From Leucoraja ocellata (lineage: Eukaryota): DNA of 64,000 nucleotides. The notes below the pieces were generated by a model. That model was not told the origin of the DNA and made no database searches. It worked only from the letters and a program-made list of their open reading frames with translations. Shown one piece after another: positions 10,401 to 51,487 of this stretch. The translations under genes and the position numbers were made by a program. Each line of letters starts with the position of its first letter. The first letter of the stretch is position 1. The DNA is taken from the NCBI GenBank assembly GCA_036785375.1, contig JAWMAR010000351.1, positions 186,001-250,000 of the forward strand, read 5' to 3'.

Positions 10401-13400
10401 TGGCACTGACTTGTATAATTGAATGAACAATGGAAAGGATCTTTGATCATTTGTATAATATTCCCCTTAAGGTAGCTATTCACATGAAAGACTACAAACA
10501 AGCTTAATTTAAATGACGAGGAATCTATAGTTTGTAACTGGGAAGACCAGTTCATACATGTAAAGAAGTTATTATTGATGCAACAGCTGCACAGGCAAGG
10601 CTGTACAGCCAATGAATCTGCACCAATCCATGCGGACCTTCTGCTTGCAACAATTGCGCAGAAGATGGTAATTCACAGTGGTTCCCCCTAGAGGTGGTAT
10701 TGGATGGATGTATCGTGGGGAGATGCACAGATGCAGTCTGAGCCATATCCCTCTGTTTACAGTGGCAAATTGGATCAGCAACACACCTTTATTCTGATGA
10801 AGTAGCCAGATTTCCTCTGTATCCTACACTTTAACACTTGCACTCAGCTCGGAGCAAAATTGCTTCCATTCGAAAGGGGAATAAGGTGAATTTTCTGATA
10901 CTATATGAAAGTTTAAAAGCCAGAGCAACAGGCTGCCAAATTACTGTGTGCTTTATATACTGTCACCTGTCACTCATGTTGTTGCAAGGTTATGCAGGTT
11001 GAAGACAACCCTCTTTTCAACTCTCAAAGTATTTTATCTAAAATAATGTCATAGTGATCCAATGTGGAAACAGGCCCTTTGGTCCAACTCTCCCACACCG
11101 GCCAAGGATGTCCCAGCTACACTAGTCCCACTTTCCTGCGCTTGGACCATATCCCTGTAAACCTGCCCTATCCATGTACCTGTCTAATTGTTTCTCTAGC
11201 AGCTTGTCCATACACCCACCACCCTTTGTGTGAAAAAGCTACCCCTCGGATTCCTATTAAATCTTTTCCCCATCACCTTGAACCTATGTCCTCTGGTCCT
11301 CGATTCCCCTACTCTGGGCAAAAGACTCTGTGCATCTACCCGATCTGTTCCTCTCATGATTTTGTATACCTCTGTAAGATCTCCCCTCATCCGCCTGCGC
11401 TCCATGGAATAGAGACCCAGCCTACTCAACCTTTCCATATAGCTCACACCCTCTAGTCCTGACAACATTCTCAAAATTTTTCTGAACCCTTTGAAGCTTG
11501 ACAATATGTTTCACATAACCTGGTGCCCAGAACTTGTCTGAGAAATGTCTTAGAAATTGTATAATGCAACAAGTGAAGGAGAAATGCATAATTCAGCAAA
11601 GACTCCACGTGTCTTATGGAATGCCCTGTCAGCGGAGACTTCTCGACTTATTGTCAAGGTAAGCATTTGAGAAAGGCGCTTAACAGGTTCTCGCAATATC
11701 CGTTGGATGACGGATGCAGAAATGCGCTCAAAACAAATGTAAAACTTGTCTGAAGAAAACTTATGATTCTGTCCAGTATTGCTTGGATTTTGCATATTTG
11801 GTTAAAAAATTGTTAAGGTCTCAATTTACTTTTTTCTTTCAAAGAACTTTCAGAAGCACATGATAGGGACACGCCATCATCAGAGACTCTTGGAGATTCA
11901 GCAGATGAGTAATGCTTGTATGTCCACATTAATTCCAGCGACAAGCTCGGTGGGAAGAAGCAGAGAAAGGTGGGTGCAATTGCTGGAGATTGATAACTTG
12001 GACTGCTTTGAAATACTTGACATTAAAATCGCTACAGAAAGAAATCTCTATAAGTGTTGAATTATGTATAATCTTCAGCACAAACATATTACTCAGGTTA
12101 ATTGTTCAAATGCCGGTTTTATATTCCGAAGACTCTTTCTACCTCACTTTTGAATCTTGCAAGTATAATTTTAATTTTCTATCCTGTATTTATTTAGCAT
12201 TCCCTAAATATTCCAGTTGTGTCCAAACACTCCCCACTCCCACTAGAGCAATTTTTGAAAGGTGAGATCAGGTAAAATCTGCGGACTGGAGACCCCAGCC
12301 AGTTCTAAGTAACTCTTTCTTGCTTTACAGTGACAAAAAACGACCCAGATGGTGCAGTACCTGCCAGGGTCATTTCAGAGGGAATATAATTGAACACCGC
12401 AGGACACAGACACACAAGGTAGACAGAAAATCTTTCCACAGTTATTGCTTGTGTTGTACTACCATTTGATGAGTGTCTTTAAGTTAAAAGTTAGTTTTCC
12501 TTTTGAATATTGAGAGTTCCTCTGAATCTTTGGACTAACATTTCAGGTGTTAACGAATCCTGTGCTTTTAAAGCATTTTCTGTCTTGCTTTTGTTGAAAT
12601 ATGCTTAAATATTTTTACTACAACAAAATATCCTCAAAACATTTTGGGTTGCATCATCATGAGTCAAGTCAAGAATGTTCTATTATCGTTTGTCCCAAAA
12701 CAGAACAATGAAATTCTTACTTGCAGCAGCACAACAGATATGTAAACATAGTTTTATGTAAATACCATGACAAATAATAATGGCAGGAGTGAAATGAGAG
12801 TGTGGCCAGGGTGGTCTGAGTCTCTGATGCTACCTGCCTTTTTGAGGATACGACGCTTGTAGATCTCTGTAGCTGGAGGGCAGGTCAGTACCCGTAATGG
12901 ACTGGCAGTTTAGAGATACACTGCAGAAACAGGCCCTTTGGCCCACTGAGTCCATGTCAACCAGCAATTCCTGTACGCAACACTATCCTACACACACTAG
13001 GGACAATTTACAATTTTACCAAGCCAATTAGCCCACAAACCTATCCGTTTCTGGAGTGTGGGAGGAAACCGGAGCTCCCCGAGATAACTCACACAAGTCA
13101 CGGGGATGTTCAATAAGTTTTCCTTATCAAAGGTGAACAAATCTAGAAGATGCAGTTTAGGGTAAGGGGTAAGAGATTTGGAGGAAATCTGAGGAGAAGC
13201 TTTCTGCAAAAGAGTGATGGGTTGTACTGCCAGATAGAATGCTGAAAATGGTCGCTGACAGTATTTAAGAAATGTCCACACAAGCACTTCAATCGTCTAG
13301 GCATTGAAGGCTATGGGCCAAATGCTGAAAGATGGGATTAATAGGGATGGCTTCCCACTGGTTGGTACGGGCATGATGGTCTGAATGGCCTGTTTCCATG

Positions 13401-16400
13401 CTGTAATACGCTATCCTGTTAGAATTGCGAAGGGTAGTGTGGGACTACTTTGATCCCGATTGCCTGTAAATTATCATTGTAGAAAAATAATAAAATGATT
13501 TGTTAAAAAGCCTCCTACTTTGAAAATTATGATACTGCTGTTGGATTTGATGCTCATACTTGTGTGTAGTACTGGAAAAAACAAAGCACAAAGTACTGAA
13601 GTAAATCAGCAGATTATGTAGCATCTCTGGGGAACATGATTCAAGTCGAGACCCTTCAGACTGATTGTAGTGGTACTGGAATCTGTTTAAGTCAGAGGGT
13701 CACTCAGGGAAGGGGAGTCACAACTGAAGGACTTTTATTTTCATCATGTCATAATGCCCAGCTGTACAAAACAATTTGACGGCCCATACGTTGTTTTGAA
13801 ATTTGCTCTGACATTATTTGTGTATATTCTTTCCGGGTTGTTGGTGCAGTGGTGCATGCATTATCTTTAATTTCGAGATGGATGTAGCCCCAGCCAAAAC
13901 GACGTGAATAGTATAATAATCAAGAAACGGCCACTCCATTTCTTTTGTGCTTCATTTAAATTTAAAAAAATTGAAACCACTAGGCAAATCCCGTCCCATG
14001 CAGCAGTTACGTCATTTATGTTCTCTGTTTCTCACTAGCTTTCTAAGTACTCTCTGCGGCCTTTCTGCACTGTTTGCAGCAGACATTTCAAAACCCCCCG
14101 CAAGTTTGTGGAGCACATGAAGTCGCCAGAACACAAGCAGAAAGTGCAAGAGGTACAGTAACCTTTTTATCAAAGCTTTTCACTTGTTTCCACAGTGGGA
14201 TTTGTGGGACATTTTTAGGTCAATTTACTTTCATGCATTTGGAATAGCTATTCCTGTGCCCTAGAGCAGTGCAGATGAATTACAGCGTTCAATGGCAACA
14301 TTTATACGGAACCTTCAATGAATTGAAACTGAAATGGGGCTTCATAATTGTGTTATTGAATACATTTTTACCAATGAGACACAAGATGATGTTAGAACAG
14401 CTGAACAAGTGACGTCTAAGAGATGAGTTTTATAAATTATCGTAAAAAAATAATAGTGTTATAGTATATTATGGATGTTTCAGAGCTTGGATGAGTGGAA
14501 AAACAGATTGGCAGAGACTGGGTGTAAAATCAGGCATGTGCAAGAAGCTGGCATTAAGGAAGCAGGGAGTTCTTGAATGGATGTAGGAGCAATTGAGATT
14601 GCAGATAATTAGGAGGACCAACATCATGAAGTGACTTGAATACTTGAGCAATGAGGATTTTCAATTTGAGGTTTTGCTGTCTTAGGACGAGTGTAAAGGC
14701 AATGACCAAGGTCCTTTGTGATGATTGGACTGTTATCCATGACTTGCCTAGAGACCATTGAGATACTTATCTGAAAAATGTCTTCATTTGGACATGTTCT
14801 TTAAGATCCCACTTTTGCACTTGGACTTGGTTTTGTCAGCTTTAGAAAGTTGTGTGTTCAACTCCATACCAAGAGTAGGCTAATATTTATGTGCAATGCA
14901 TTCTTTTAATAGACCTACGTTCTGATTTGCATGGTCAAATGGATGTTAAAGCTGAAAAGTATTGCATTCAGCTGACTCTGAGCCTAAATGGCAGATTTCA
15001 ATCATAATCAAGTGCTGTTTGTATGGAATTTGCACCTTTTCACTGTGACTGCGTAGATTTCTTCCAAGTTCTTTGGTATCCTCCCAGACCCCACACTGTA
15101 ATTTGCCTCTAGTGTGGAGATGTGTAGTATCTGGGGGTGTTGAAGAGAATGTTTAGAACATTTTTTTAAATGGGATTAATGTAGCATTACTGAAATATGA
15201 GTAATTCTGCAATTTGATTGCAGGGTTGATGGACCTGTTTCTTTTCTGTATTGCTCAATGACTCTTGTTATAATCTTTTTAAACAATGCTCCTTTCTCCT
15301 GCCAAAAAAGATAGAAATTATGCACATTTCCTTCTGACCCCAAGATCAACAGGCGTGTTTTGGCTGAGTAGGTCTAACTATTTGGAAAGATTGCACCAAT
15401 CCATGTCCTGCTTTAGAGGCAGCCAGATGAACTTAATTTACTTAAGAACTTTTTTGGTTATAAACTCAGCTCATTTTCCGAAAACTTACAAACAAATTAT
15501 ACGAAATACAGTTTGGTATTACTTATTTTTATTGACTGTCCAAAAATGGCTCTTCCAGATAGCTGTTTGGGATGCAAATATCTAAACGTGTAAATAAAAA
15601 TGTGTGTTCTTAGACACAAAAAGCTGGAGTAACTCAGCGGGACAGGCAGCAGCATCTCTGGAGAGAAGGAATGGATGACGTTTCAGGTCGAGACCCTTCT
15701 TCAGACTCGACCCGAAACGTCACCCATTCCTTCTCTACAGATATGCTGCCTGTCCCGCTGAGTTACTCCAGCTTTTTGTATCTATCTTCGGTTGAAACCA
15801 GTTACTTCTTACACAAAATGTTTGTTTTGTTTAGTTTAGAGATGCACTGACCAGGGATCCCCACACACTAACACTATCCGACACACACTAGGGGCAATTT
15901 ATATTTATACCAAGCCAATTAGCCTACAAACCTGTACGTCTTTGGAGTGTGGGAGGAAGCCGAAGATTTCTCAGAAAACACACGCAGGTCAAGGGCACAA
16001 AGTCCGTACAGACAAGCACCTGTAGTGAGGATGGAACCCAGGTCTCTGGCGCTGTAAGACAATAGCTCTACCGCTATGCCACCGTGCTAATTGTAATGTA
16101 TATAATCTGTGAACAAAAGGTAGAATTAATTATCTGTATCTTTAATAGAACAATATTTGTGCCGGAATAGGTCATACTTGTTACTCTCAACGATATCCAA
16201 GATGTAAGCTCCCTTGCATTAATTTTAAACAATTTTTTGGCGGGATGTCACATTAGAACGTTAGAGGTAGGAATAGCCCATCCCGCCCCAATTGTCTACT
16301 GTGCTATTCTGTAAGATCATGTCTGATTTTGTTTTTGCTTTAACTCCAGTATCTGCGTTAACCCAACTACGTTGATTTCCTTATTATCTATGTCTATCAT

Positions 16401-19400
16401 TCTCTGCCTTGAATGTGCTTGGGGACTGCCTCCATCTACTTTGGAGAAGAATTTTAACGGGTTTATATTGCTATTCCATGAGTGGAGAGATTTTTCATCT
16501 GAGTGCTGAATGCCCAACCCTTCGTACTGGTCCTTTCAGATATTTTCAAGAAGTATGAAGGACTTGATGAGATCACTTTCAGAGCCATCTTAAATCGGTA
16601 TTCCCACATTGCACTGCAATTTGACAAATGAATTTTTTATGAGACCTGTTCACAGGATGGTTAAACAACATTGCTGGGTGTCAGGAGTCGCCTCGGCAAA
16701 ACCAAGCAATGGTAGACATCCCTTCTTAGACATTAACAAATAATTTATTAATTATAATTTAATAATTTATGCAATGGCAGGTTAATGCTCGCCTTGATTG
16801 ATGTTGCAAGATTTCGATCACAAATTTAATTGACTGTCTTTAAAATCTTTTGCAACCGTTACATTTATATTCATGTCCCTATATCATTGGTACATTAAAA
16901 ATAACAAAACAAGTATCTTATAGGAGAGCATCTCCACCAGTGATTTTTTGTAACTCATTCTGGTATCTCCGAACACATCCAAGGGTTTGTCCCTTGCTCC
17001 CTCTTCTTCTTCCTCCGTTCCCAAGGCAGAAGCATCGAAATATTTCTGCCTTTAAAACATTTCAAAATCTTGCATTTGTGTTGATGAACCTCTTCTCTTG
17101 ACTTTTCCATACATAGGTAGTGTCAACTGCTAATGCAAAGTCCAAATATGGACAATTAATTTAAAAACTGGAACTATCTAAGCCACATAATTGAGAGTTG
17201 GAAGGGGCAGGAAGGGTGGATGGGTTGATACTTGGGGAGGCATTTCAGGAAATATACACATTTGAGATTTAGGCGGGTATACCACTTCTTTATGTTCAAC
17301 ACCCTGTGTAATTGTACATTGTTAAATTGCATTTGTTGCCAGGTTAAATTGCAGCGCAGCTCCCTGGATAAAGATCAGGCTGGACAAGATGATCCAGAGG
17401 ACATGATTACTGTTGATGCAGTTGGTTGCTTTGATGAAGATGATGAAGAAGGAATGACCGAGGGTGACGACTGCGATTCTGACAGTTTAAGTGATAGTGA
17501 TTCTCAGGTTTGTCAATATGCTGCCAGAACGGCTTGCAATTCCTCATTCCGTCGTGTTTAAATAATAATTGTTATTCAATACAGTATGGATGATGAAGCT
17601 ATATCTTTAACTGTTCTATTACTGTTTTTTATGGAGTTAATCTTTACAACTCTAATGAAATCATTTGTCATGGAAGATACATTTTTGTTTTAATGTGTTA
17701 CTACAGGTACTCATTTGTACAGTATTGCTAATATATTAAAGGATTTTCCCCACATTATCAAAGTTTGATACCAACTGTATAAAATGAGGCAAGGGCAGAT
17801 GACCAAACATCGTATGAAGGAGATTTTAAAGAGTATCTTAAATGAGGGTAGAAACTAAAGTTTAGAGAGGGATTTTTATAAATTGGGAGCCGGAGAATGG
17901 ACAGAATAGCAATCATTGCCAGTGTGAAGAAAATAGGGTATGTGCATGAGCTTAAAGTCCCAGGCAGACAGAGCCAGAGTATATTGCATAAATGGGAAGG
18001 GTGGAAGAGATGGAAGGATTTTTAAATTAAGATGTTGAGAGATGAGTAGCAGTTAGTCTAGATTAGCCAATTATTTGGTAGGAATTGTCAATTCATTTTT
18101 TTTTTCAGGAAGCAAAGGAATTGCAGTAATAAAATGCAGCTCTAAAATAATGAAGATTACCAGCTAAAATTGCTAAATACTCAATCGGGGTAATTGAAAC
18201 AAATTTCACAAACTCTGAACAGATTGGAGGTTAAGAATCACAAAGATTGGCAGTCGTGTGACATGGTACTGCTGAAAGGATAGCTTATTTGGAGATTGAA
18301 ACCTATTGAGAAAGGGGATTGCTACTTTTTTTTTTTAATTCCCTCATAAGAGGGAGAAGAAACACATAAAGGCCCCTTAGTTAGGAAATTAACAGTTAAC
18401 CTGGTAGAGGTAATCTTAAACAAACTCGGCATGGATTGTAAGTTTTGGCCCAACTCGCCCATGCTGACCCAGTTGCCTACCTGAACTAGTCCCATTTGCC
18501 GCATTTGGCCCATATCCCTCTAAACCTTTAGATGGACACAATAAGCTGGAGTAACTCAGCAGGTCAGAGAGCATCTCTAGAGAAAAGGAATAGGTGACGT
18601 TTTGGATCAAGACACTCCTCAACCTAAAACATCGCCTATTCCTTTTCTCCAGAGATGCTATCTGACCTGACTTGTCTGACCCCCCCCCTCACCTCAAAAT
18701 TATGCCCTCTGGCTTTGCTTGACATCTATGAAATAACATGGTATTTACAATTTCTTGAATAAATGTGTATTTTAGAATGGGGGAGAAAAAAAACCCATCT
18801 GCTTTGTATATTTAGACCTTGATGTCAGAATACCGGAAGGAGCCATATGATACAGAGACTGTATACGGTGAGTACTGAAAAAGTAATGTTGATCAGTGCT
18901 TTTCTTCATTAAACCCTAATAAATTCACCCAAGTAAGGCAAACTTAATAATGTAGACTGGGAAATTCACACAAATGTTAGTTTTTAATTTAATGAAATGT
19001 TCCACATTTTCTACACTGGATTTTTAGTAATATATCCAATGTAAGAAATCAAGGAATCTTACATTATCATAATCAGATGAGCACCAAGTAAAGAGAAGTT
19101 CAGGATTGGTGACAGAAGCGTTCAGCTGGAAGTATAGATTTTGAACAGGATCCCAAAGAGAATGATATAAAGTTGACTACAATTCCATAATTGAAAACTT
19201 GGATGGCTGGGGCCATGGCTGATGATGGTAGATGGAAAGAAATAAGGATCAGAGAATCATCGGATTCAAAGAAGTTGCAAAAATACAAGGGAAATGCCAT
19301 GGCTAGATATGTATGAGGTTCACGTTAAGGAGTCAAAAAGAAAACCCCATGTGGCAAATGGTTGGTTTGGTCTGAGATATTGCCAAGGGGAGTAAATAAC

Positions 19401-22400: not shown

Positions 22401-24468
22401 TTCCATTGATTTAAATGAAAGAATTTTATAGACATGATTCACCAGAAATAAAACAGTTGAAAATTTATAATTGAGGTACTGCCACCCAGAAATGCTGTGG
22501 AATCAATGTGGGAAAGGACACGGGCATTGGGGCACATTGTTTGGCAAACTAGGTTTGCTTTGCATCTATCCTTTTGCTAGATCTGGATGCATTTAATGTT
22601 GTTACCGATCCCTCAATGCAAAATGCTAATGAAGAGGTATTGATAATGTATCCTCGTGAAGGAAAATTGGAGCAAGTCTGTGACCTGTTAAGCATTCATT
22701 TTCTATTGAGCTTTGAAGGTTTAAATTATGGCTACTGTGCTATTTGTTTTACATTTAAAGTAATGTATAATGGCAGTCCAATTGTCATCTTATGTTGTTT
22801 CTCATTTATTTGAATCCTTTTCACTAATTTGTAATCTGTCGTCATGCAGTTATTGTTTGCTGGACTGCAAGCTGCTTGCTTTACCTACTAATTCTTGGGG
22901 TTTCGCATTTCTCTTTTCCATCTTAATATAGCAGCATATGTTTCTTGACGTGTTAATTGTTCTATAGAAAGTAATGGAGCAAAAAGTTTTGTTGTCACTT
23001 TTGTCGTTCAATTTCGAGCTGACTAACTAAATGTGATTATATTGGATTTTTTTTTGCTTGGAATGGATTAGATGCAACAAAGGTACGAAGCTGTACAGCT
23101 GCAAATTTTCTTAACAGTTTTTTGAAAAATTCAATGACATTAAGTTGCATAATTGGAAAAACGGTGCATGGTCAAATGTGTGAAGACGACATCTTTTGCT
23201 GCTTCTCCTTAAACTCATAAGTGCATCACATGCTTATGCGTTGGGGGTGGGGACTGGTACATTCAAATCCCTAATAATATGTGGAGTTGTTCCCGCATTT
23301 TGTGCTTGTGCTAGCGTGGTACTAAAGGAGGAAGTCAGCTCAAAATTGGTCACTTCACAACATTCTTAAGCAGGAAAAAACAAAGCATGGATCTTGAAGA
23401 GGAAGTATTAATGCTATTTGTTTGCAGTAATCTGTGATTTGAGCCTTTGTCAGTTTTTTCCTGATTTCTTTGTTGATACAGGGTTACAAAGCACAAAGAG
23501 CCCAGGATTATTTATCAGTATCTTATCAAGAACCAGCGGTTTCTGTGGTGGACAGCCTTGGTTCAACAGATGATCAAATACCAGCAAGTGGAAACCAAGC
23601 AGAGGAAGACCTCAAATCTGCAAACATCACTGGCAACGATCCTGAAATGGCAGTGGCAAGTTGTGAAGCTGAAACTGCTACACCTACAGATGATGATATC
23701 ATTCCCAATGCAGCCAATGGTAACAATATAGACAGTTGTTCCCCTTTGCAGAAGCTCCAGCCTGAGAATCCAGATGGCAGTGATCAAGGTGATACAGTCA
23801 TTGGCAATATGTCTGATGTGAAGTTTGATAGCAACTTAATAGGCATCCCGTGTACAAAGAACGAAATGCTATGTGGCAAAGCGGAGGGGGAGCAGGAACC
23901 TGGCTCTGACAAATGTGAGTCGAGTTGTGAAGCTGAAACTGCTACACCTTCAGATGACGGTACCATTCCAAATGCAGCCGATCGTAACAATATAGACAGT
24001 TGTTCCCCTTTGCAGAACCTCCAGGCTGAGAATCTGGATGGTGGTGATCAAGGTGATACAGTCATTGGCAATATGCCGGATGTAAAGTTTGATTGCAACT
24101 TAACAGACAGCCCGTGTACAAAGAACGAAATGCCAAGTGGCAAAGTGGAGGGGAAGCAGGAACCCGGCTCTGACAAATGTGAGTCGAGCTCTATTGTGGG
24201 CAGTGAGGTGGCAGATGAAGAGCAGGATGGGAATGAGGAATGTGACCTGGGCTCGTCCAAGACCGAGGAGCCCAGTGAGACGGAGGATGGTGAAGACGAG
24301 CACCTGACTGATAGCTGCCTGGCAGAGAAGGAGGGCGAAAAGACGAATGTCAAAGGCGAAGAAAATGAGCTAGGTGAGGAGGATAGGCCTGTGGAACGCA
24401 AAATTCCCAGAACAAGATCTGGCAGGGCAGTGCGTGGTCGTCGTCCTGCTTTGAGGCGGAAAAAGTAA
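1257..24468 (+). CDS. ciz1: CIZ1 (Cip1-interacting zinc finger protein), 5'-partial; join(1257..1411,3433..3541,4298..4403,7265..7338,8145..8209,10211..10390,11845..11969,12331..12418,14039..14152,17343..17507,18816..18867,21744..21865,23482..24468)
   Basis: All junctions are GT-AG with matching phases (2342 nt = 2 + 780 codons). Recognised motifs: FFPPGSRASILGTPPVG, SLKVTIQQSSESRAIST, three C2H2 fingers, acidic ITVDAVGCF region and a matrin-type finger. Confidence 0.93.
2915..3170 (-). mobile_element. tRNA-derived V-SINE (HE1-like)
   Basis: V-domain (ggtttcctcccacactccaaag) on the minus strand. Confidence 0.8.
3433..3541 (+). CDS. ciz1: ciz1 exon (DIKRMQDMRRDRYSPRE...)
   Basis: ttgcag acceptor, gtactg donor; open frame, phase 0 to 1 fits neighbours. 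Confidence 0.7.
4298..4403 (+). CDS. ciz1: ciz1 exon with basic NLS-like EPEVKRRKL
   Basis: cctcag acceptor, gtactt donor; phase 1 to 2. Confidence 0.75.
6265..6848 (+). mobile_element. Old, degraded Penelope-like 3' fragment
   Basis: Resembles the 3' end and terminal repeat of element C. Confidence 0.55.
7265..7338 (+). CDS. ciz1: ciz1 exon (QNDDDVIEQSNSGE...)
   Basis: Pyrimidine tract plus gcag, gtgatt donor; phase 2 to 1. Confidence 0.7.
8145..8209 (+). CDS. ciz1: ciz1 exon (TDKNEESAVGENLE...)
   Basis: ttacag acceptor, gtaaga donor; phase 1 to 0. Confidence 0.72.
8520..9196 (+). mobile_element. CR1-clade LINE fragments (RT piece plus 3' end)
   Basis: Degenerate DGIYPRL...VVPLFKKG..NYRLVSL and 3' UTR. 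Confidence 0.8.
9499..9817. mobile_element. PIF/Harbinger-type MITE, 319 bp
   Basis: 67-bp TIRs (9499..9565 and 9751..9817, 4 mismatches) with TTA target-site duplication on both sides. Confidence 0.88.
10211..10390 (+). CDS. ciz1: ciz1 exon, start of zinc finger 1 (FICYIC)
   Basis: SLKVTIQQSSESRAIST motif; tag and gtaagg splice sites. Confidence 0.92.
11048..11532 (-). mobile_element. CR1-clade LINE 3' fragment
   Basis: RLGLYSMERRRMRGDLTEVYKIM...FFTQRVVGVW. Confidence 0.88.
11845..11969 (+). CDS. ciz1: ciz1 exon (NFQKHMIGTRHHQRLLEIQQMS)
   Basis: His pair completing finger 1; aag and gtgggt splice sites. Confidence 0.9.
12331..12418 (+). CDS. ciz1: ciz1 exon, zinc finger 2 (WCSTC...HRRTQTHK)
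   Basis: C2H2 motif; cag and gtagac splice sites. Confidence 0.92.
12909..13110 (-). mobile_element. V-SINE (HE1-like), 5'-truncated
   Basis: Same family consensus. Confidence 0.78.
14039..14152 (+). CDS. ciz1: ciz1 exon, zinc finger 3 (RPFCTVCSRHFKTPRKFVEHMKSPEH)
   Basis: Closely matches the mammalian CIZ1 finger as I recall it. Confidence 0.95.
15611..15800. mobile_element. Self-inverted Penelope terminal-repeat dimer
   Basis: Arms of about 80 bp (15611..15692 and 15706..15784) around a 13-nt loop. Confidence 0.85.
15673..15707 (-). ncRNA. Putative minimal hammerhead ribozyme (Penelope-derived)
   Basis: Minus strand reads AGT-CTGAAGA-A-GGGT-CTCG-ACCT-GAAA-CGTC-ATCC. Confidence 0.55.
15830..16087 (-). 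mobile_element. V-SINE (HE1-like)
   Basis: tRNA-like head plus V-domain. Confidence 0.82.
17343..17507 (+). CDS. ciz1: ciz1 exon, acidic domain (ITVDAVGCFDEDDEE)
   Basis: Conserved motif; cag and gtttgt splice sites. Confidence 0.92.
18531..18670. mobile_element. Self-inverted Penelope terminal-repeat dimer (degraded)
   Basis: gcatctctagagaaaaggaataggtgacg ... atcgcctattccttttctccagagatgc. Confidence 0.7.
18816..18867 (+). CDS. ciz1: ciz1 exon (…EPYDTETVYG)
   Basis: tttag and gtgagt splice sites; resembles mammalian YSPNTAYG. Confidence 0.85.
21744..21865 (+). CDS. ciz1: ciz1 exon, matrin-type zinc finger (VPVTGFLCKLCHKFY...HCKSLMH)
   Basis: Matrin-type finger motif; cag and gtgag splice sites. 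Confidence 0.95.
23482..24468 (+). CDS. ciz1: ciz1 terminal exon, 328 aa, acidic low-complexity tail ending in a basic segment
   Basis: Longest ORF in the window. Phase-0 acceptor; GYKAQR resembles mammalian KYKAAK; ends RTRSGRAVRGRRPALRRKK-TAA. Confidence 0.88.
   Translation, partial: GYKAQRAQDYLSVSYQEPAVSVVDSLGSTDDQIPASGNQAEEDLKSANITGNDPEMAVASCEAETATPTDDDIIPNAANGNNIDSCSPLQKLQPENPDGSDQGDTVIGNMSDVKFDSNLIGIPCTKNEMLCGKAEGEQEPGSDKCESSCEAETATPSDDGTIPNAADRNNIDSCSPLQNLQAENLDGGDQGDTVIGNMPDVKFDCNLTDSPCTKNEMPSGKVEGKQEPGSDKCESSSIVGSEVADEEQDGNEECDLGSSKTEEPSETEDGEDEHLTDSCLAEKEGEKTNVKGEENELGEEDRPVERKIPRTRSGRAVRGRRPALRRKK
23659..24186 (+). repeat. In-frame tandem duplication, 2 x 264 bp (88 aa)
   Basis: 23659..23922 versus 23923..24186: 25 substitutions, no indels (hand alignment). 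Confidence 0.97.
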
Positions 24469-29662: not shown

Positions 29663-29853
29663 TCAAGCCTTCTGGTTCTTGGATTCTATTGAAAGGACTG
29701 TTGCATCAATTTGTTGCTGCCTAAATTCCATCCTTGCTTGGCGATTTGACTCCAACAGTTCTTGAAATTTAGCATTTAGTACATCGTTCTTCTCCTCAAG
29801 GTTGTCCAAGCAAGAGTCAATCTGATCAAGCATCAAGTTGAGTGTATCATATT
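29663..29853 (-). CDS. bbln: bbln exon 2
   Basis: ttggcag acceptor, coiled-coil sequence, TGA stop. Confidence 0.95.
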
Positions 29854-32800
29854 CTGCCAAAGATGGACAGAGGTGAGGAATACATCTCTAATTACAGATT
29901 GAATTAGACACAACAGAAATAACAAAAGTACAACATTGAGTCACATTTGCAGACAATTAATTACTTTTGGCGGTCCATTATAATATAAGATTTGCAGATA
30001 ATAAGGGTTTTCACATGACTGGGAGACGATTGCAATGAAGTGTTTTCTTGGGATACTCGCTGGGGGATGACCGATTAAAACACCTGAAAGAATACATGCA
30101 TTTTCAATAATATGAGAAATTACATCCACTAGAGGGAAGACATGCCTGTTTGGAACAGTTCTTATTGCAAACGTACTCTGGTACCATCCATCAACTCTGC
30201 TGCGTCGACTGCATTGGGGTTGCCTCCTGCACTCGTGCAGAACATGTTGATTTCATTAACTTTACAACCTGCCATCAAACTCACTTGGACTATTCTTTCT
30301 AGATCTCTCTCCATCAGAGAGGAGAGAGTATCATTTAACATCTATTACAAACTCATCAACTAGTTATCGGAAGTAAACCACCTCCCACCCTGCCTCTTGC
30401 AAAGACGCTATCCTCTACTCTCAATTTCTCTGTCTCCTCTGCATCTGCTCACAAGATGAAACTTTCCATTCAAGGACATCCAAGATCTTTATAAACATGG
30501 TCTCTTTGCAACCCTACCCCCTCTTGCATAGATGGATCCCTCACCTGTATCCTGTTGTTCTGCACTCATGCCCCACTCTGCCCAGATCGTGCAAGGAGGG
30601 TTTCACTGAAACTTACATTCTACCCCATCATGCCCACCACATCCAACACCTCATTCTCTGCATTTCTGCCACCTGTTATGTGATCTCACCACTAGTCACA
30701 TCTTCCTATCACCACCCCTTTCTGCCTTCCACAAAGACCGCTTCCTCCGAAACTCCTTGGTTCACTCATCCCTTCCCACCCAAACTGCCCCCCTCCCCTG
30801 GTACTTTCCCCTGCAACTGCGGTAGATGCAACACCTATCCGTGTACCTCCTTCCTCACATCCATCCAGGGACCCCAGCAGTCCTTCCAGGTGAAATGGAT
30901 ATTCATGTGCAACTCCTTTAATCTTATCTCCTGCAGTTGGTGTTCTCAATGTGGCCTTTACATCGGCGAGACCAAATGAAGACATGGTGACGTCTTGCAC
31001 GGCACAGTGACACAACGGTAGAGTTGCTGCCTTACAGCGCCAGGGACCTGAGTTCAATCCTGACCACGGGTGCCATCTATATGGAGTTTGTATGTTCTGG
31101 TAACCGTGTGAGTTTTCTCCAGGTGCTTCAATTTCCTCTCACATTCCAAAGACGTACAGATTTGTAGGAAGGAACAGCAGATGCTGGTGTAAGCCGAAGA
31201 TAGACAAAAAGCTGGAGTAACTCAGCGGGACAGGCAGCATTTCTGGAGAGAAGGAATGAGTGACGTTTCGAGTCGAGACCCTTCAGACTGATTAGAGATA
31301 TAGACAATGATAGATAAAAGAACAATGAATGAAAGATATGCAAAAAAAGTACCAATGATAAAGGAAACAAGCCATTGTTAGCTGTTGGGTGAAAACGAGA
31401 AGCTAGTGGGGGAGGGAGAGGGAATGCTGGGGCTACCTGAAGTTAGAGAAATCACAATTCATACTATCCACTGGACTGTAAGTTGCCCAAGCGAAATATG
31501 AGATGCTGGTCCTCCAATTTGCGTTTAGCCTCACTCTGACAATGGAGGAGTTCTAGGACAGAAAGGTCTGTGTGGGAATGGGAAAGGGAATTAAAGTGTT
31601 TAGCAACTGGGAGATCTGGTAGGTTCAGGTGGACTGAGCGAAGGTGTTAAGTGATACGATCGCCTAGTCTACGCTTGGTCTTGCCGATGTCTAAGAGTCC
31701 ACATCTTGAACAACGGATACAGTAGATGAGGTTGGAGGAGGTGCATGTGAACCTCTGCCTAACCTGAAAGGACTCTCGGAGTCCCTGGACAGACTCGAGG
31801 GCGGAAGTATAGGGACAGGTGTTGCATCTTCTGCGGTTGCAGGGGAAGGTACCTGGGGAGGAGATGGCCTGGGTGGGAAGGGATGAGTTAACCAGGGAGT
31901 TGCAGAGGGAACGGCGGAAGGCGGAAAGGGGTGGAGATGGGAAGATGTGTCTACCGTTGGGATCCCATTGGAGGTGGTGAAAATTTTGGAGGATTATGTG
32001 TTGTGTGCAACAACTGATGGGGTGAAAGGTAAGGATTAGAATGAAGGGGAGCAAAGGCAGAACTGCAGGGTACCGAGGAGACGCGAGTGAGGGTCTCATC
32101 TATGATGGGAATGGGGAATCCCTGTTCCCTAAAGAATGAGGATATCTTGGATGTCCAGATTTGTAGGTTAATTGACTTTGGTGAGTTGTAAAATTGTCCC
32201 TAGTGTGTGTAGGTGAGGGTACAAGGTGATCGCTGGTCAGCATGGATTCAGTGGGCCAAAGGGCCTGTAACCGTGCTGGATCCCTAAAGTTTAAATCGCT
32301 GTAGACCTAACGGTATGAACATTACATTCTCCAATTTTAGATAATTAACTTACAAACATCCATCCAGCCCCCTCCTAAAATCAGTATGATGAAGGGCCTC
32401 TACCCGAAACATCATCTATCGATGTTCTCCAAAGATGCTGCCTGACCTGAGTTACTCTAGCATATTGTGTCCTTTTGCCGCCTCCAACGGGATCCCACTA
32501 CTGGCAACATCCTTCCATCTGCACCCCCTTTCTGCTTTCCGCAGAGACCATTCCCTCCGCAACACCTTGGTCAACTCGTCCCTTCCCACCCAAACCACCC
32601 CCCTTCCCTTGGTACTTTCCGCTGGAGCCGCAGGAGATGCAACACCTGGCCCTTTACCTCCCCCCCTCGACTACATCCAAGGACACCAACAGTCTTTTCA
32701 GGTGAGGCAGAGGTTCACTTGCACCTTCTCCAATCTACTGTATCTGCTGTTCCTGGTGTCAACTTCTCTACATCGGTGAGACCAAGCGCAGGCTCGGCGA

Positions 32801-33593
32801 TCGTTTCACTGAACACCTCCACTCAGTCTGCCTTAAACTTCCTGATATCCCGGTTGCTCAGCACTTTAACACCCCCTCCCATTCCAAAATGACGTTTCTG
32901 TCCTGGGCCTCCTCCGTTGTCAGAGTGAGGCCCAGTGTAAACTGGAGGAATAGCATCTCATATTTCGCTTGGGTAGTTTACACCCCAGCGTTATGAACTT
33001 CTCTAACTTCAAATAGCACTGGCTTTCCCTCTCTCTCCATCCCCTCCCACTTCCCAGTTCTCCCACCAGTCTTCCTGTCTCCGACTACATTTAATCTGTC
33101 CCGCCCACTCACCTGACATCAAGTCTGAAGAAGGATCTCGACCCGAAACGTCACCCATTCCTTCTCTCCAGAGATGCTGCCTGACCCGCTGAGTTACTCC
33201 GGCATTTTGTGTCTATCACACATATATACACACACTGAACTTGTTTTTGTCGTTTATTATATCGTTTACAGAGTGCTATGTTTACATGTTCTGTTATGCT
33301 GCTGCAAGTAAGAATGTCATTGTTCTAGTTAGGACATGTGACAATAAAACACTCTTGGCTTGTCTCGTGATCAATCTGAAGAAGTAAAACACGAAATGCT
33401 GGAGTAACTCAGCGGCTCACTAAAGTAAAAGGCGTCGTTGCCTGTTCATTCCTTCAACGGACGCTGCCTGGCCCGTTGAGCCCCTTCAGCACTTTGTGTT
33501 TTGAGTTTCCGTCCACTGGCTTTTACCTTCAGCGGGTACATCGTCCTCTTCATGCTCCACATTAACAGCCGGCTCTCCATTCGGCCCCGACAT
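29663..33593 (-). CDS. bbln: Bublin coiled-coil protein (BBLN/C9orf16), 85 aa; complement(join(29663..29853,33527..33593))
   Basis: Exon 1 MSGPNGEPAVNVEHEEDDVPAE with G|gtaaaa donor. Exon 2 EYDTLNLMLDQIDSCLDNLEEKND...QELLESNRQARMEF matches the family. Total 258 nt. Confidence 0.95.
30140..30998 (+). mobile_element. Penelope-like element A (decayed RT C-terminus plus GIY-YIG); its 3' end resumes at about 32296..32470
   Basis: GTFPCNCGRCNTYP...CSWCSQCGLYIGETK in ORF 30497..30979. Confidence 0.85.
31000..32295 (+). mobile_element. V-SINE (HE1-like) split by Penelope B into 31000..31168 and 32156..32295
   Basis: A/B-box-like head (ggtagagttgctgccttacagcgcc...gagttcaatcc); the two halves rejoin at the TSD. 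Confidence 0.85.
31169..32155 (-). mobile_element. Penelope-like element B (GIY-YIG plus terminal repeat), inserted in a SINE
   Basis: CNRRRCNTC...NLIYCIRCSRCGLLDIGKTKRRLGDR; 12-bp TSD CAGATTTGTAGG. Confidence 0.9.
32472..33216 (+). mobile_element. Penelope-like element C (3' part plus terminal repeat)
   Basis: Frameshifted GIY-YIG (QVRQRFTCTFSNL...YIGETKRRLGDRF) followed by the terminal repeat. Confidence 0.9.
33121..33156 (+). ncRNA. Putative minimal type-I hammerhead ribozyme in the Penelope terminal repeat
   Basis: CTGAAGA(A) - stem II GGAT-CTCG-ACCC (one mismatch) - GAAA - CGTC, with palindromic ACGT stem III. Confidence 0.6.
33527..33593 (-). CDS. bbln: bbln exon 1
   Basis: ATG TCG GGG CCG AAT GGA (MSGPNG); phase-1 donor. 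Confidence 0.92.
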
Positions 33594-36381: not shown

Positions 36382-44058
<7,677 letters not shown>

Positions 44059-44231: not shown

Positions 44232-45539
44232 ATTGATGAATGTAATCTTGTGCTGTTTTGATCCTAACTCCATTCAAGTGCTGGAATCTTGAGCAAAACA
44301 CAAAGTGCTGGAGGAACTCAATGGGTCAGGCAAAAATAATAAGCAAAAATAAAATGAACAACTGAATTATCCTAAACACACACCAATCCAGTGCATTTGT
44401 GGAGGGAATGAACAAGTTAATGTTTTTGCTGTGATACTTAAGAACTAGTAACAGTGGTCTACTTTTAAATAGGAACAAGGAACGGGAGAGAAAAAGGAAC
44501 CAAAATATACAGATCGAATTATTGGTAGGAAAACTGTTACGTGCACATGTTGTCTCTTTCATGGCCCTTTGTTTCACTTGAGTGCTGTTTTCCTTTTCCT
44601 GAAAAATTAGAGAGCAGAAGAATATTCTCTAAGGTTTGAGCCAATATTTATTTCTGCAAGAATGGAACAATATTATCTAATCATCATCATCATATTGAAT
44701 TGTTCTAATTGCAATTGGCTGCCATATTTTCGGCATCGCATCAATTGCTATTCTCACGGTTTCACTGGGCATATCACATCATTTTAGAGCCCAAGATCAA
44801 GAACGGCGCTGTAAAGATGCAAGTTCTCTTTTTTTCCTTTTTTTTATATATTGAATCGATTTCCTTTGGTGCTGTGAAAATACAAATACCCTGATACATG
44901 GTTTTCCATTAAGATACACCTTGATTCATGACTTTCCATCCTGGCTTAATTGCAAGATAATTCAATTCTACCTCTTTTCAGATCAACAGTAGTTTAACAA
45001 TCCAGGATACACCAGGTTTGTTTAGCAGGGTCAAGAAAGACTGTCCTCTTTTAGCTAAGGCAATTTAATAAATACAAACCTCCAGGTGTCGTCTTTCTTA
45101 CAGTTTGGCTTTCTTCCCGACCAATTGTTCAAGCTCTTTTGATTGCAACATGCGCCTTAATTTAGTTCAACAATCCACCCCCTTGTTCTGACGATCTCTG
45201 GTTCTAGACTATCCTGTGTTAAGTCCTTAAGTGTTAAATTTTGATGTGATTTCTTATTCCACACTCTAGATTATGTAAGCTTAGTGTACTCAATCACACC
45301 TCCTACAACAAGCCTGGATAGACACAAAATGCCTTTTTCACACAAAGGGTGGTGGGTGTATGGAACAAGCTGCCAGAGGGGGTAGTTGAGGCACAGACTA
45401 TCCCAACATTTAAGAAACAGACAGGTACATGAATAAGCCAGGTTTGGAGGGATATGGACCAAATGCATGCAGCTGGGACATGTTGGCCGGTGTGAGCTAG
45501 TGGGGTCGTAGTGTTTCAATGTAGCACTTAATGACTGAG

Positions 45540-45975
45540 AACGAATGGGTGACTTTTCGGGTCGAGACCCATCTTCAGACTGAAAGTCGGGAGGGGGAGA
45601 TACAGAGATATGGAAGCGTAAGGTGTGAGAATGCGACATCAAAGGGGATGGAGATCAAGGGAAGCAAATGTTACTTGAAGTTAGAAGTCAATGTTCATAC
45701 TGTGGGGTGTAAGCTGCACAAGCGAAATATGATGTGCTGTTCCTCCAAGTTGCGTTGGGCCTGGACTGATAATGGAGGAGGACCAGGACAGAAAGGTCAG
45801 ATTGGGAATGGGAGGGAGTGTTAAAGTGCTGAGCAACCGGGATATCCAGTAGGTTATGGCGGACTGAGGGAAGGTGTTCAGCGAAACGATTGCAGAGCCT
45901 GTGCTTGGTCTCGCCAATGCAGAGAAGTTGACCCAGGAACGGCGGATACAGTAGATGAGGTTGGAGGAAGTGCCT
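45540..45975 (-). mobile_element. Penelope-like 3' fragment with hammerhead-like terminal repeat
   Basis: CIGETKHRLCNRFAEHL; CTGAAGATGGGTCTCGACCCGAAAAGTC on the minus strand. Confidence 0.85.
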
Positions 45976-47474: not shown

Positions 47475-47680
47475 TGTGTAGAAAGGAACTGCAGATGCTG
47501 GTTTAACCGAAGATAGACACAAAAAGCTGGAGTAACTCAGCGGGTCAGACACCATATCTTGAGAAAAGGAATAGGTGACCCTTCGAGAAGACCCTTCTGG
47601 GTCTCGACCCGAAACATCACCTATTCCGTTTCTCCAGAGATGCTGTTTGACCCGCTGTTACTCCAGCTTTTGTGTCTACC
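47475..47680. mobile_element. Self-inverted Penelope terminal-repeat dimer
   Basis: tagacacaaaaagctggagtaac ... gttactccagcttttgtgtcta. Confidence 0.8.
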
Positions 47681-47854: not shown

Positions 47855-48177
47855 AGGTTAATTTAGAGATGCAGCATAGAAACAGGTCCTTCGGCCCACC
47901 GAGTCCACGCCGACCACCGGTCACCCGTTCACACCAGTTCTATGTTATCCCACATTCGCATCCACTCCCTACACAATGGGGACAATTTACAGGGAGGGGT
48001 CAATTAGCATTCAAACCTTGCACGTCAATGTGTGTGAGGAAACCGAAGCATCCAGAGGAAACCCACTTGATCATAGGGAGAACATGCAAACATCACACAG
48101 ACAACAGTACCCGGCGTCAGGGTCGTACCCGATCTTTGGTTCTGCGAGGCAGGCGGTCCACCAGCTGCGCCACTTGT
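47855..48177 (-). mobile_element. V-SINE (HE1-like)
   Basis: Family consensus. Confidence 0.75.
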
Positions 48178-49804
48178 TGAAGAGAGGTGGTGGGGGTTGA
48201 CATTAACCAGTGGCGAGATGTTCTTATAGGTGCACCTATAAATTAGGTGCTCTTCTCTACATATCTCACCGGCCCCTTTAATCAATCCCACGTTTACCTT
48301 CGTTTCCTTGGATGGAACGACTGCCAACAACCACTTAACTCATCGGCGACGAGGTTTAAGTGTTATCGACCCATTAGTCTGCTGGTATTTCAGTCTAGGA
48401 TTGCGACAATCACTTGTTCACAATCTGGACGTCGAAACAGACATACATACTTTTAACAAACAACGACACTGACGTTAAGGGCATGTGCCCAAGCTGCCGT
48501 AGGAAATTTTGAAAGAAACTCGATACTAAGGCAGCAGGCATAAGAGACCACTGGTGCCGGAATTTGGAGCAAACCACATAGCTGGTTTGCGTTGGTCTTT
48601 ATTTGAAGTACATATTATACTGGAAGTCTTGCAGACGTAGGGTGTGACCCATTGTAACGATGATAGATTAGCTTTGTGACACTGGAACATCATTGTTACT
48701 CTATAGTTTAAGTTGAGCTGTAACCACTGTGAAAGGTAGACAAAAATGCTGGAGAAACTCAGCGGGTGGGAGTAGGTGCTCCATCTAGTACCTCATGGTT
48801 TCCAGCTCCAATTCCCTACCTCCCCGAACTCAGACTCGGGCAGTATATGTGGAGTGAATAGACAGGTGACTTTTCAGGCCGGGATCTTCTCCAATCTGAA
48901 GAAGGTTCCCGACCTCAAACATCGTCTGTCCATTCCCTCCACAGATGCTGCCCTGCCAACTGAGTTCTCCAGCAGTTTGGTTTTTGCTCAAGATTCCAAC
49001 ATCTGTGTCTCTGTAAACTGCAGATATTGAATCTGAAAGAGTAGAAAATGCAGGAAATATTTTGCTGGCCAGGTGGCATTGGTGAAACAAAGTTAATATT
49101 TCAGCTCACTGACATTTCATCAACCTGAAATACATTCTGATTCCCTCTCCAAAAGTACTAACTGATCTGCTGAGAATTTCCATCATTTTCTATTTTTTTC
49201 TTGGATTTCTACCATCTGCGATATGTTGCTATTGGATACATGAGAAGCCAATTAACTGAATGCTCTGCTTGAAGTTACTTACTTGTTTGAAAGCAGCTGC
49301 CTTGATAGAGCATTTAGAATTTCAACATAAATCATGGTGTTTGCAATATTTGAGCTTCACGATGACGTTTCAACACAAATCTATCTTTATGTTTGCTTTT
49401 TTTGCAGATGTGATAATCATGAGTGGTTGCATTATTAATCTTATTGCATAAAGGAATTCAATTGAATCTGCATTGTGTTGTTTCATTTTAATTCAGTTCA
49501 GATATATGCTTTATAATGAATGCCACTTGCAAACAACAGTGCTGGAAATAGAGTTCAATTCCACAGAAAATTGATTTAAATCACGATAAATTTTGGGAGG
49601 GAATGAAGTATTCTCAGTTGAAACTTTTCTTTTTCTTTCATGCCGATGAAGAATTGTTACCCAATATTTTAAATAAGTTGAGTCTTTTGATTTTGATTAC
49701 TAACTGATTCACAGTAGTTTAGTTTGCATATAGTCTGGGTTCTCAAAATAGTTGCATTGCTACTACGATGGCAGTATACTGTTCATCTTCTTGAGCATCC
49801 TTGG

Positions 49805-50090
49805 GTTTAGTTTAGAGAGACAGGGCGGAAGCAGGCCTTTCGGCCCACCAAGTCTTCGCTCACCAGCGATCCCCGTATGTTAGCACTATCCTACACACTA
49901 GGGATAATTTACAATTTTTGTGAAAAAAGCCAATTAAACTACAAATCTGCACATCTTTGGAGTGTGGGAGGAAACTGGAGCACCCGAGGAAAAGCCACAT
50001 GGTCACAGGGAGAATGTACAAACTCCATACAGACAGCATCCATAATCAGGGTCAAACTTGGGTCTGCTATGTGAGGCAGCAAATGCTGTG
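49805..50090 (-). mobile_element. V-SINE (HE1-like)
   Basis: Family consensus. Confidence 0.8.
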
Positions 50091-50515: not shown

Positions 50516-50524
50516 AGATTCAAC

Positions 50525-50817
50525 ATGAAACAAGTGTTTTGGCCCACCAAATCCTTGTCGACAATCGATCACCCATACACTAGTTCTATGTTATCTTATT
50601 TTTGTATCCTACGAACTGGGAGAAAATACAGAAGCTAATTAACCTCCAAGCCTGCACATATTTGGAATGTGGGAGGAAACGAGCACCCAGAGAAAACCCA
50701 CCCAGTCACGAGGAGAACGCACGAGGAGAAAGTCTGCACAGACAGTACCCAAAGTCAGGATTTAACCCAAATTCAAATCTCTGGTGCTGTGAGACAGCAG
50801 CTCTACCGCTGTGCCGT
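50525..50817 (-). mobile_element. V-SINE (HE1-like)
   Basis: Family consensus. Confidence 0.75.
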
Positions 50818-51487
50818 TTTCTGTGTCATTTAGTTACCTTTGTCAAATGTCTTGATGGCCGGCATTGAACCAAAGAGTTCCAAATGATCCACTCCAGACA
50901 ATCAATTCTATGTTTTCGCTACCCATCCTACTTGATCCTTGACTCATAACAAAAGCAGGTGTTGCAATTGTGTATTGATATGTACTTTGTTAGAAAGAAT
51001 GGGCTGAATATTTACTCCTTGAGGTGAAAATATTGTTCTATTTCATTTGAATTCAGTCTTAAGATTGGTCTTGACCCGAAACGTCGCCTAGTCCTTTTCT
51101 CCGTAGATGCTGCCTCACCCGATGAGTTTCTCCAGCATTTTTTGTCTACGTTCTATTTCATTTTGTTATTTTGAATATTTTTTATATAAAATGTTTCTAC
51201 ATAAACGATCTTGTATCACCTGGATAGACAATAGTAATTTTTTTCATTGAGAACGTATTTGAAGTATCAAATGCACTCCCTGAAATAAATTTCTGGACGA
51301 GCACTTAAATTGCCACGGTGTGGATGATTAAGGACCAAGATCTAGGAATTTGTGTAAATTAGTATTTGACTGTTGGAATGAACTGACAAACCTGCTTCTC
51401 CGTTGTATGATTCTGTGACCAGAATATTTTGAAGATCAGCAGAACCAATTTGATTCTTTACATTACTTTGCTCAGCTGAGAAGAGAA

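Follow-up and report, generated by a model that had tools for sequence, protein, structure and literature searches.

The hammerhead-like sequence at 33121–33216 lies in a repeat that recurs throughout the 64-kb stretch of Leucoraja ocellata DNA analysed here (the window), including inside introns of host genes. This raises the questions of whether the fold is genuine, which element supplied it, and whether its copies cut RNA. We consider it likely that the repeat represents the 3' pseudo-LTR, together with the tail, of a cartilaginous-fish Penelope-like element of Neptune type, that it carries the minimal type I hammerhead of this clade, and that its copies are decaying neutrally and are not working ribozymes.

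The flagged motif and its nested locus

The original prediction placed the hammerhead boxes, an extra A, stem II, a palindromic stem III and a cut after 33152 at this site, and each of them was found there (Table 1). The family consensus was also as predicted, except that the fourth base after the cut is T rather than C. In the flagged copy itself stem II reads GGAT and not GGGT as had been reported, and the A at 33135 makes an A-C mismatch; across four public runs this position is G in 87–91% of family depth or reads. Stem I, given as 2–3 bp, is indeed short, but it has 2 bp (GU/AC) and not 3. Both the consensus and the flagged copy contain the core of minimal hammerheads (CUGANGA, GAAA and U-H, an extra nucleotide after A9, G10.1-C11.1 and a palindromic stem III), and these core elements were invariant across 13 aligned motifs. 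An Rfam search of the 64-kb window returned no hammerhead hits, which is expected with a minimal motif. Three solo copies (38222-, 56547+ and 59560+) have GGT in place of AGT before the CUGA box. Starts with GGT would add a third stem I pair; the G may derive from the cap or from fold-back addition, or may belong to the flank by chance.

Table 1 Features of the flagged locus and of other copies in the window
Feature	Position	Strand	Evidence or remark
BBLN coding exon 2	29690–29851	-	Pfam UPF0184, E 3e-19
E1 5' part: RT core to GIY-YIG start of an older, decayed element	30141–30991	+	tblastn to P0001/P0002
SINE-like repeat within E1, split by E2	31002–32288	+	halves 31002–31168 and 32156–32288
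E2: 5'-truncated element, long tail	31169–32155	-	3-nt deletion in CUGAAGA box
E1 3' part: ORF C-terminus, short UTR, broken hammerhead, tail	32300–32471	+
E1 hammerhead	32386–32413	+	C3 changed to A
E3: RT thumb, Cys linker, GIY-YIG; 5'-truncated, frameshifted	32473–33016	+	abuts E1 tail directly
Pyrimidine-rich 3' UTR of element	33017–33121	+	subfamily-dependent
Minimal type I hammerhead motif	33122–33154	+	sequence, pattern match, alignment, public reads
Stem I 5' arm	33123–33124	+
CUGAAGA box	33125–33131	+	C3 = 33125
Extra A	33132	+
Stem II	33133–33144	+	private A = 33135
GAAA box	33145–33148	+
Palindrome ACGU	33148–33151	+
C17	33152	+
Stem I 3' arm	33153–33154	+
Remaining pseudo-LTR to short 3' end	33153–33217	+	loose ends at 33214–33217
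BBLN coding exon 1	33527–33593	-	peptide
Inverted head-to-head pair of short copies	15611–15816	.	minus arm 15677–15704
E4: GIY-YIG fragment, UTR, hammerhead	45537–45973	-	15.2 changed, palindrome broken, tail missing
Solo short copy	51035–51163	+	14-bp target-site duplication; starts 5–8 nt upstream of C3

The locus is nested. E1 holds a SINE-like repeat, in which ARAGORN found no tRNA; the SINE is split by E2, with a 12-bp target-site duplication on either side (31157–31168 and 32156–32167); and E3 with the flagged motif stands directly on the tail of E1. All of these lie within the coding intron of a gene that we take from its peptide to be BBLN (C9orf16). Since BBLN is on the minus strand, the flagged plus-strand motif is antisense to the host transcript.

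The parent element

The repeat had been predicted to terminate Penelope GIY-YIG elements, and it ends all four RT-thumb/GIY-YIG fragments in the window. The fragments align to residues 72–451 of protein P0002, with RT and then a C-terminal GIY-YIG in one ORF; in P0002 the GIY-YIG match is above the Pfam cut-off and the RVT_1 match is weak. No intact element ORF was found in the 64-kb window and no full-length element of the family was seen, nor did any of the DNA contigs examined span the stretch. ORF fragments were 53–64% identical to ray and shark proteins, with the best four named matches at 58–64%. The E2 peptide had 25 protein matches, including Mobula, Rhincodon, Hypanus and Stegostoma at 58–64% and gar at 52%. 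A C-x4-C-x2-C linker precedes the endonuclease, and E2 has YCIRCSRC...H...H. In PMC8557442, a CX2-5CxxC linker and a C-terminal CCHH endonuclease are ascribed to Neptune and Nematis, not to Poseidon or Naiad, and in a preprint (10.64898/2026.07.22.740005) the vertebrates sampled yielded Neptune and Poseidon only. The linker with its C-terminal endonuclease points to Neptune or Nematis, an assignment by layout rather than by an RT tree.

Two 3' ends lie 30–40 nt apart. Other copies extend by this distance, as a tail, beyond the short end of the flagged copy; E2 and the copy at 43636 reach the long end, each bounded by target-site duplications, and loose ends agree. The family also has 5' truncation and inverted or tandem pseudo-LTRs, with head-to-head pairs at 15611–15816, 18530–18669, 47512–47678 and 48827–48981. 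In all three respects, the alternative 3' ends, the head-to-head pairs and the heavy 5' truncation, the family behaves as Penelope elements usually do. A little skate gene model, P0027 (a Leucoraja FIGLA isoform), opens with a translated piece of the repeat tail. At 33160–33176 the tail has a pyrimidine tract, AG and ATG that resemble a splice acceptor.

Searches with the tail pattern of the window repeat gave no matches in viral, metagenome or genome contigs. Likewise, the related-family pattern had none in viral sequences, the protein alignment search confirmed no viral loci, and no RNA run was listed as holding the repeat among indexed sequencing runs.

Comparative support for the fold

Among 80 related metagenome loci, 54 had an endonuclease end with room downstream. 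The strict motif lay 46–189 nt behind the endonuclease match in 19 of these 54, and in none of the 54 reverse complements or 1080 shuffles; many of the remaining loci had mutated versions of it by eye. We aligned 13 motifs, two from the window and 11 picked as distinct among the related loci. Ninety-two percent of cells paired and 8/10 pairs changed on both sides, all four pairs of stem I covaried, and the palindrome alternated between ACGT and ATAT. Pairing in stem II and the palindrome is partly circular because the descriptor requires it, while stem I was not selected for. Compensatory changes in all three stems indicate that the predicted hammerhead fold is genuine for the clade. The stem II covariation that had been sought across subfamilies was present across about 11–12 related loci, but within the window family stem changes were one-sided only.

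Stem I has 3–6 bp in 18/19 strict relatives versus 2 bp in the window family. The supplement of PMC4209133 includes cases with a 2-bp helix I from Drosophila virilis, Culex and Oikopleura. Searching peptides for translation through the repeat returned two matches, without covariation that could be used. In zebra shark P0011 the C-terminal end is translated across the motif and has a G at 11.4, the partner base being unreadable from protein.

Two side observations came from the related loci. L081–L087 are animal Penelope-type repeats in bacterial MAG contigs, suggesting that two assemblies are contaminated with host DNA. L008 has a 20-bp minisatellite array in two orientations (1819–3504) directly behind a Neptune-type tail.

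Copy number and decay

More than 15 copies of the repeat had been claimed for the window, and a profile trained on the window found 34 (E ≤ 0.01), against 0 on the reversed window and 0 in 10/10 shuffles. A hammerhead-like pattern had 10 matches in the window versus 0.03 expected by chance, and 4/10 retained all core nucleotides. The core is complete in the family consensus, but a single copy of the 34 passed the strict hammerhead descriptor, at 15677–15704 on the minus strand. The other 33 fail mostly because of decay at three CpGs within the motif; CpG columns were changed in 61/199 cells (31%). Truncation inside or downstream of the motif was also common. The anticipated excess conservation of the core was borne out: in the window, A13, A14, A15.1 and U16.1 differed in 4/96 cells versus 139/811 in A/T columns of the tail. 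Part of this low rate in the core may come from the way the alignment was trimmed, and roughly one in three A/T columns of the tail varies almost as little (0.03–0.07). These counts, together with those for CpG, suggest that the core was held between subfamilies and decayed after insertion. Variants at 1.1 (A 18, G 7), 1.2 (C 19, T 5) and 11.4 (A 21, G 2) mostly kept pairing.

The short repeat far outnumbers the coding region, with about 8–30 times the endonuclease-region depth in four runs and 34 copies to 4 endonuclease fragments in the window. The 64-kb window contained one complete motif and no pair of intact same-strand motifs. DNA contigs had both inverted and head-to-tail joints, with head-to-tail 96-nt units numbering 6 in X1 and 10 in X5, of >165,000 contigs and with some joints uncounted.

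A mechanism modelled on Frangieh 2024 (PMC11167929) would produce such a family. Downstream of the motif the element RT would have two internal start sites, and from either it would copy RNA that is still uncleaved, passing the cut site. Synthesis of most cDNAs would end early, leaving many short solo copies, often as head-to-head pairs. Once inserted, copies would decay neutrally, fastest at the three motif CpGs, and so would neither be working ribozymes nor cut host pre-mRNA.

Where copies begin

We numbered copies with C3 = 0 and the cut at +28, and set their boundaries by eye, since automatic calling over-extended or mis-assigned several. Nine of the 34 window starts were in the UTR or further upstream, 7 at -8 to -1, 9 at 0 to +12 (mostly inverted junctions), 1 at +24, 1 at +28, and 7 beyond. 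The excess at -8 to -1 (7/34) had p ~0.001 and that within -8 to +12 (16/34) p 6e-7, under a uniform null over -80 to +60, an interval in which 29 copies have their 5' end. This null overstates significance, and the intervals tested were partly chosen post hoc. With 1/34 copies starting at +28, we rejected the cleavage product as the main template in the window family.

Position 33122 was the top 5' loose end in four of four runs, a ranking that is inflated because 33121 carries a private additional A and the subfamilies differ in their UTRs. Head-to-tail joints run from 33216/33217 to 33122, and inverted joints fall at 33121–33126. The base at 33122 is the A of TCAGT, which we take to match the initiator consensus. 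TATAAA occurs 30–31 nt before the A at -7 in two related families (L020/L019 type and L025); no TATA box was found in the window family or in most other related families.

In the L020-type family, with a 3-bp stem I, 6/29 free arms start at -10 to -4, a start predicted from the TATA box and initiator, and 4/29 start at +26 to +30, around the cut. These 29 remained from 62 rows after endonuclease-selected arms, one contig-edge arm and two internally deleted arms were dropped and two duplicates merged. Seven later loci selected by tail sequence only had 3/11 arms at the upstream edge and 2/11 at the cut (out-of-sample p 0.02 and 0.07), with L082 exactly at +28. The frequency of cut-site starts in the L020-type family versus the window (4/29 vs 1/34) was not significantly different (p 0.17). 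No RNA 5' ends were seen at 33122 in two RNA runs. A start site inside the pseudo-LTR has a precedent in Drosophila Penelope, for which PMC2377424 describes an internal promoter with Inr and DPE.

The simplest reading of these starts is that RT runs from its internal start to the 5' end of the RNA, capped or cleaved. We tentatively add to the preferred explanation, as a possibility that we doubt somewhat more than we credit, that the 5' ends of short copies record RNA ends. Neptune-type transcription would start 3–7 nt upstream of the core, at the 33122 edge, which would place the ribozyme at the extreme 5' terminus of the transcript, and RT primed at the internal tail site of the same 5' pseudo-LTR would yield strong-stop-like cDNAs ending at the cap or at the cut. 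The edge clustering, the loose end and joints at 33122, the TATAAA of two related families and both sets of L020-type arms are consistent with this. Against it, numbers are small, the null is generous, 33122 is confounded, the window family has no TATA box and RNA 5' ends were not seen there; RT pausing or end-joining near the hairpin could also produce equal clustering.

If copy ends do record RNA ends, the related family with a 3-bp stem I would provide evidence that a minimal Penelope hammerhead cleaves in vivo, the surplus of solo pseudo-LTRs would be accounted for, and the window family, with its 2-bp stem I, would seem largely to have ceased cutting while still spreading. The role of the hammerhead would also become testable from assemblies alone, per family, against stem I length. 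A literature search that took in few subscription papers found none linking copy ends to start or cut sites.

The same edge could have another function. We think it unlikely that the motif is vestigial as a ribozyme and is kept as a DNA- or protein-binding signal such as an internal promoter, in which the initiator would be at 33122 and CGTCA, at +28 to +32, would serve as a DPE-like element. Stem I pairs 3 and 4 do fail only or mainly in window-family copies, and CGTCA fits 4/5 positions of what we take to be the DPE consensus at the right distance, although short degenerate motifs often match by chance. The Inr and DPE of the Drosophila promoter (PMC2377424) provide a parallel, whereas the variants at 1.1, 1.2 and 11.4 mostly preserve pairing, as transitions tend to do anyway.

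Ribozyme activity

Predicted folding with the family-majority base gave a probability of 0.0 for stem I and <0.01 for stem II, as GAAGAAGG is paired instead to the run of pyrimidines that follows the cut. The dimer had an active fold of -6 versus a best fold of -29 kcal/mol. In relatives, stem II probability was 0.5–1.0 and stem I probability was 0.0 for L063 and 0.03–0.08 for L020. Folding is thus a weak test of activity, since stem I is also disfavoured in relatives that probably work. Fold z-scores for five window stretches and one relative were -0.3 to -1.1 and not significant.

Cleavage had been expected to leave RNA ends at the cut site. No read-end pile-up appeared there in two RNA runs (1–6% of each, from poly(A)/single-cell libraries that show ends poorly), nor did the family reads of these runs, with ends similarly poorly shown, have any position where many molecules begin or end. 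Family reads in the two runs numbered in the tens of thousands and came from both strands; 88–98% of them continue into unrelated sequence. No sign of circular RNA was found in the poly(A) and single-cell libraries, which are unsuited to circles. The window copies are probably inactive as ribozymes. The motif of the source element may be a marginal ribozyme, with a 2-bp stem I and a competing hairpin, that would need both dimerisation and protein assistance to cut, a model to which we give slightly less than even weight. Protein-assisted cleavage is possible because the anole hammerhead cuts only with its protein (PMC11167929).

Activity of the consensus as a dimer ribozyme in vivo, with young copies cutting host transcripts or forming retrozyme-like circles, seems to us quite unlikely. 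It would fit the complete consensus core, the published 2-bp helix I, the head-to-tail units in contigs and the abundance of the repeat in RNA reads. Dimer cleavage itself was reportedly described by Lunse et al., according to a review. However, 1/34 copies passes the descriptor, the window has no intact same-strand pair, the active dimer fold is far from the best one, intronic copies have no orientation bias, and the RNA reads occur on both strands and run on, as host-transcript passengers would. It is very unlikely that the pyrimidine tract and YAG before T33124 act as a 3' splice site whose use supplies a better stem I 5' arm: AG does lie at -3/-2 behind a pyrimidine-rich stretch in five of five UTR-bearing reference copies, as published for D. 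virilis Penelope (PMC4209133), but no GT-AG skip ending at 33124 was among the joints listed (15 of 470), the nearest upstream donor-like site would by sequence reading leave stem I unextended, and the AG is absent from related families.

A 66-nt back-joint from 33210 to 33145 had 112 and 111 reads in the two RNA runs and occurred in 1 X1 contig and 0 X5 contigs. Its unit is without the CUGAAGA box. The simplest reading is a tandem duplication in one expressed gene, and it may instead be a small circle.

Relation to known hammerhead elements

The motif type is already published and is extended here to a very abundant cartilaginous-fish family; the significance as found is mainly for repeat annotation. 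Minimal hammerheads of metazoan Penelope pseudo-LTRs, including those of fish Neptune, Xena and Poseidon, were described by Cervera and de la Pena 2014 (PMC4209133). As in that work, the window motif has a type I core with one extra nucleotide after A9, G10.1-C11.1 and a loopless palindrome at 15.1-16.1, lies behind a GIY-YIG ORF, and occurs mostly as single dispersed motifs from truncated elements, with opposite-strand pairs. Its two helices are at the short end of the published range, stem I having 2 bp and stem II having 4. The searchable supplement of PMC4209133 has no shark or skate row, and a literature search that took in this supplement found no hammerhead description for shark or skate Penelope.

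Poseidon PAc of Anolis carolinensis (PMC11167929) is alike in having two internal RT starts, so that its 3' end is either short or long; it is copied mainly from uncleaved RNA and, as here, no RNA-seq ends fall at the cut. The Poseidon clade is without a Cys linker, whereas the window element has one. The PAc ORF starts inside stem II, whereas the tail ATG in the window meets a stop within 18 codons, and PAc cleavage was shown with protein, whereas the window element is known from sequence alone. Non-LTR retrozymes (PMC7229834; preprint 10.64898/2026.07.22.740005) are likewise short and non-coding, with type I hammerheads related to Penelope pseudo-LTRs and, as in this family, head-to-tail units, which are rare here. 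In contrast, the window units are dispersed truncation products of ~90–130 nt with a minimal motif, and the window has no array of two or more complete hammerheads in succession, by which such retrozymes are defined. One chondrichthyan is among the species for which the preprint counts retrozymes, and the window family may be covered in the preprint's tables. The role of Penelope hammerheads is still debated in print (PMC8557442, PMC11167929); comparison literature also included PMC6765202 and PMC3846280.

Host genes

Genes at 9500–60460 are, in order, CIZ1-like (+), BBLN (-), PTGES2 (+) and a coiled-coil gene (+). The CIZ1-like gene has zinc fingers and a weak Pfam CIZ1-like match, and PTGES2 has a GST-N domain; the coiled-coil gene is presumably ODF2-like, and names beyond the Pfam matches are our own assumption. 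The genome had been described as densely seeded with ribozyme-bearing units, host introns included. The repeat is indeed very abundant and intronic (BBLN, CIZ1-like, PTGES2 and ODF2-like), but the idea of working ribozymes is not supported, with 33/34 copies failing the descriptor. An antisense bias of intronic copies was considered and rejected: PTGES2 had 1 sense and 3 antisense copies, and the four genes together had 9 of each, with gene limits taken as the outermost exons found.

The final exon of the CIZ1-like gene, which is long and acidic, contains a 264-bp tandem duplication (88 codons, 91% identical) at 23659–24188. A near-perfect 92-bp palindrome with a (TA)n centre lies at 60085–60176, where Rfam microRNA hits were sub-threshold only. 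The SINE-like repeat of E1 belongs to an abundant family, which we take to be of the HE1 type of sharks and rays, with about nine copies in the window (2958–3136, 12907–13106, 15847–16088, 31002–32288, 38242–38530, 42756–43016, 47863–48190, 49809–50082 and 50516–50815).
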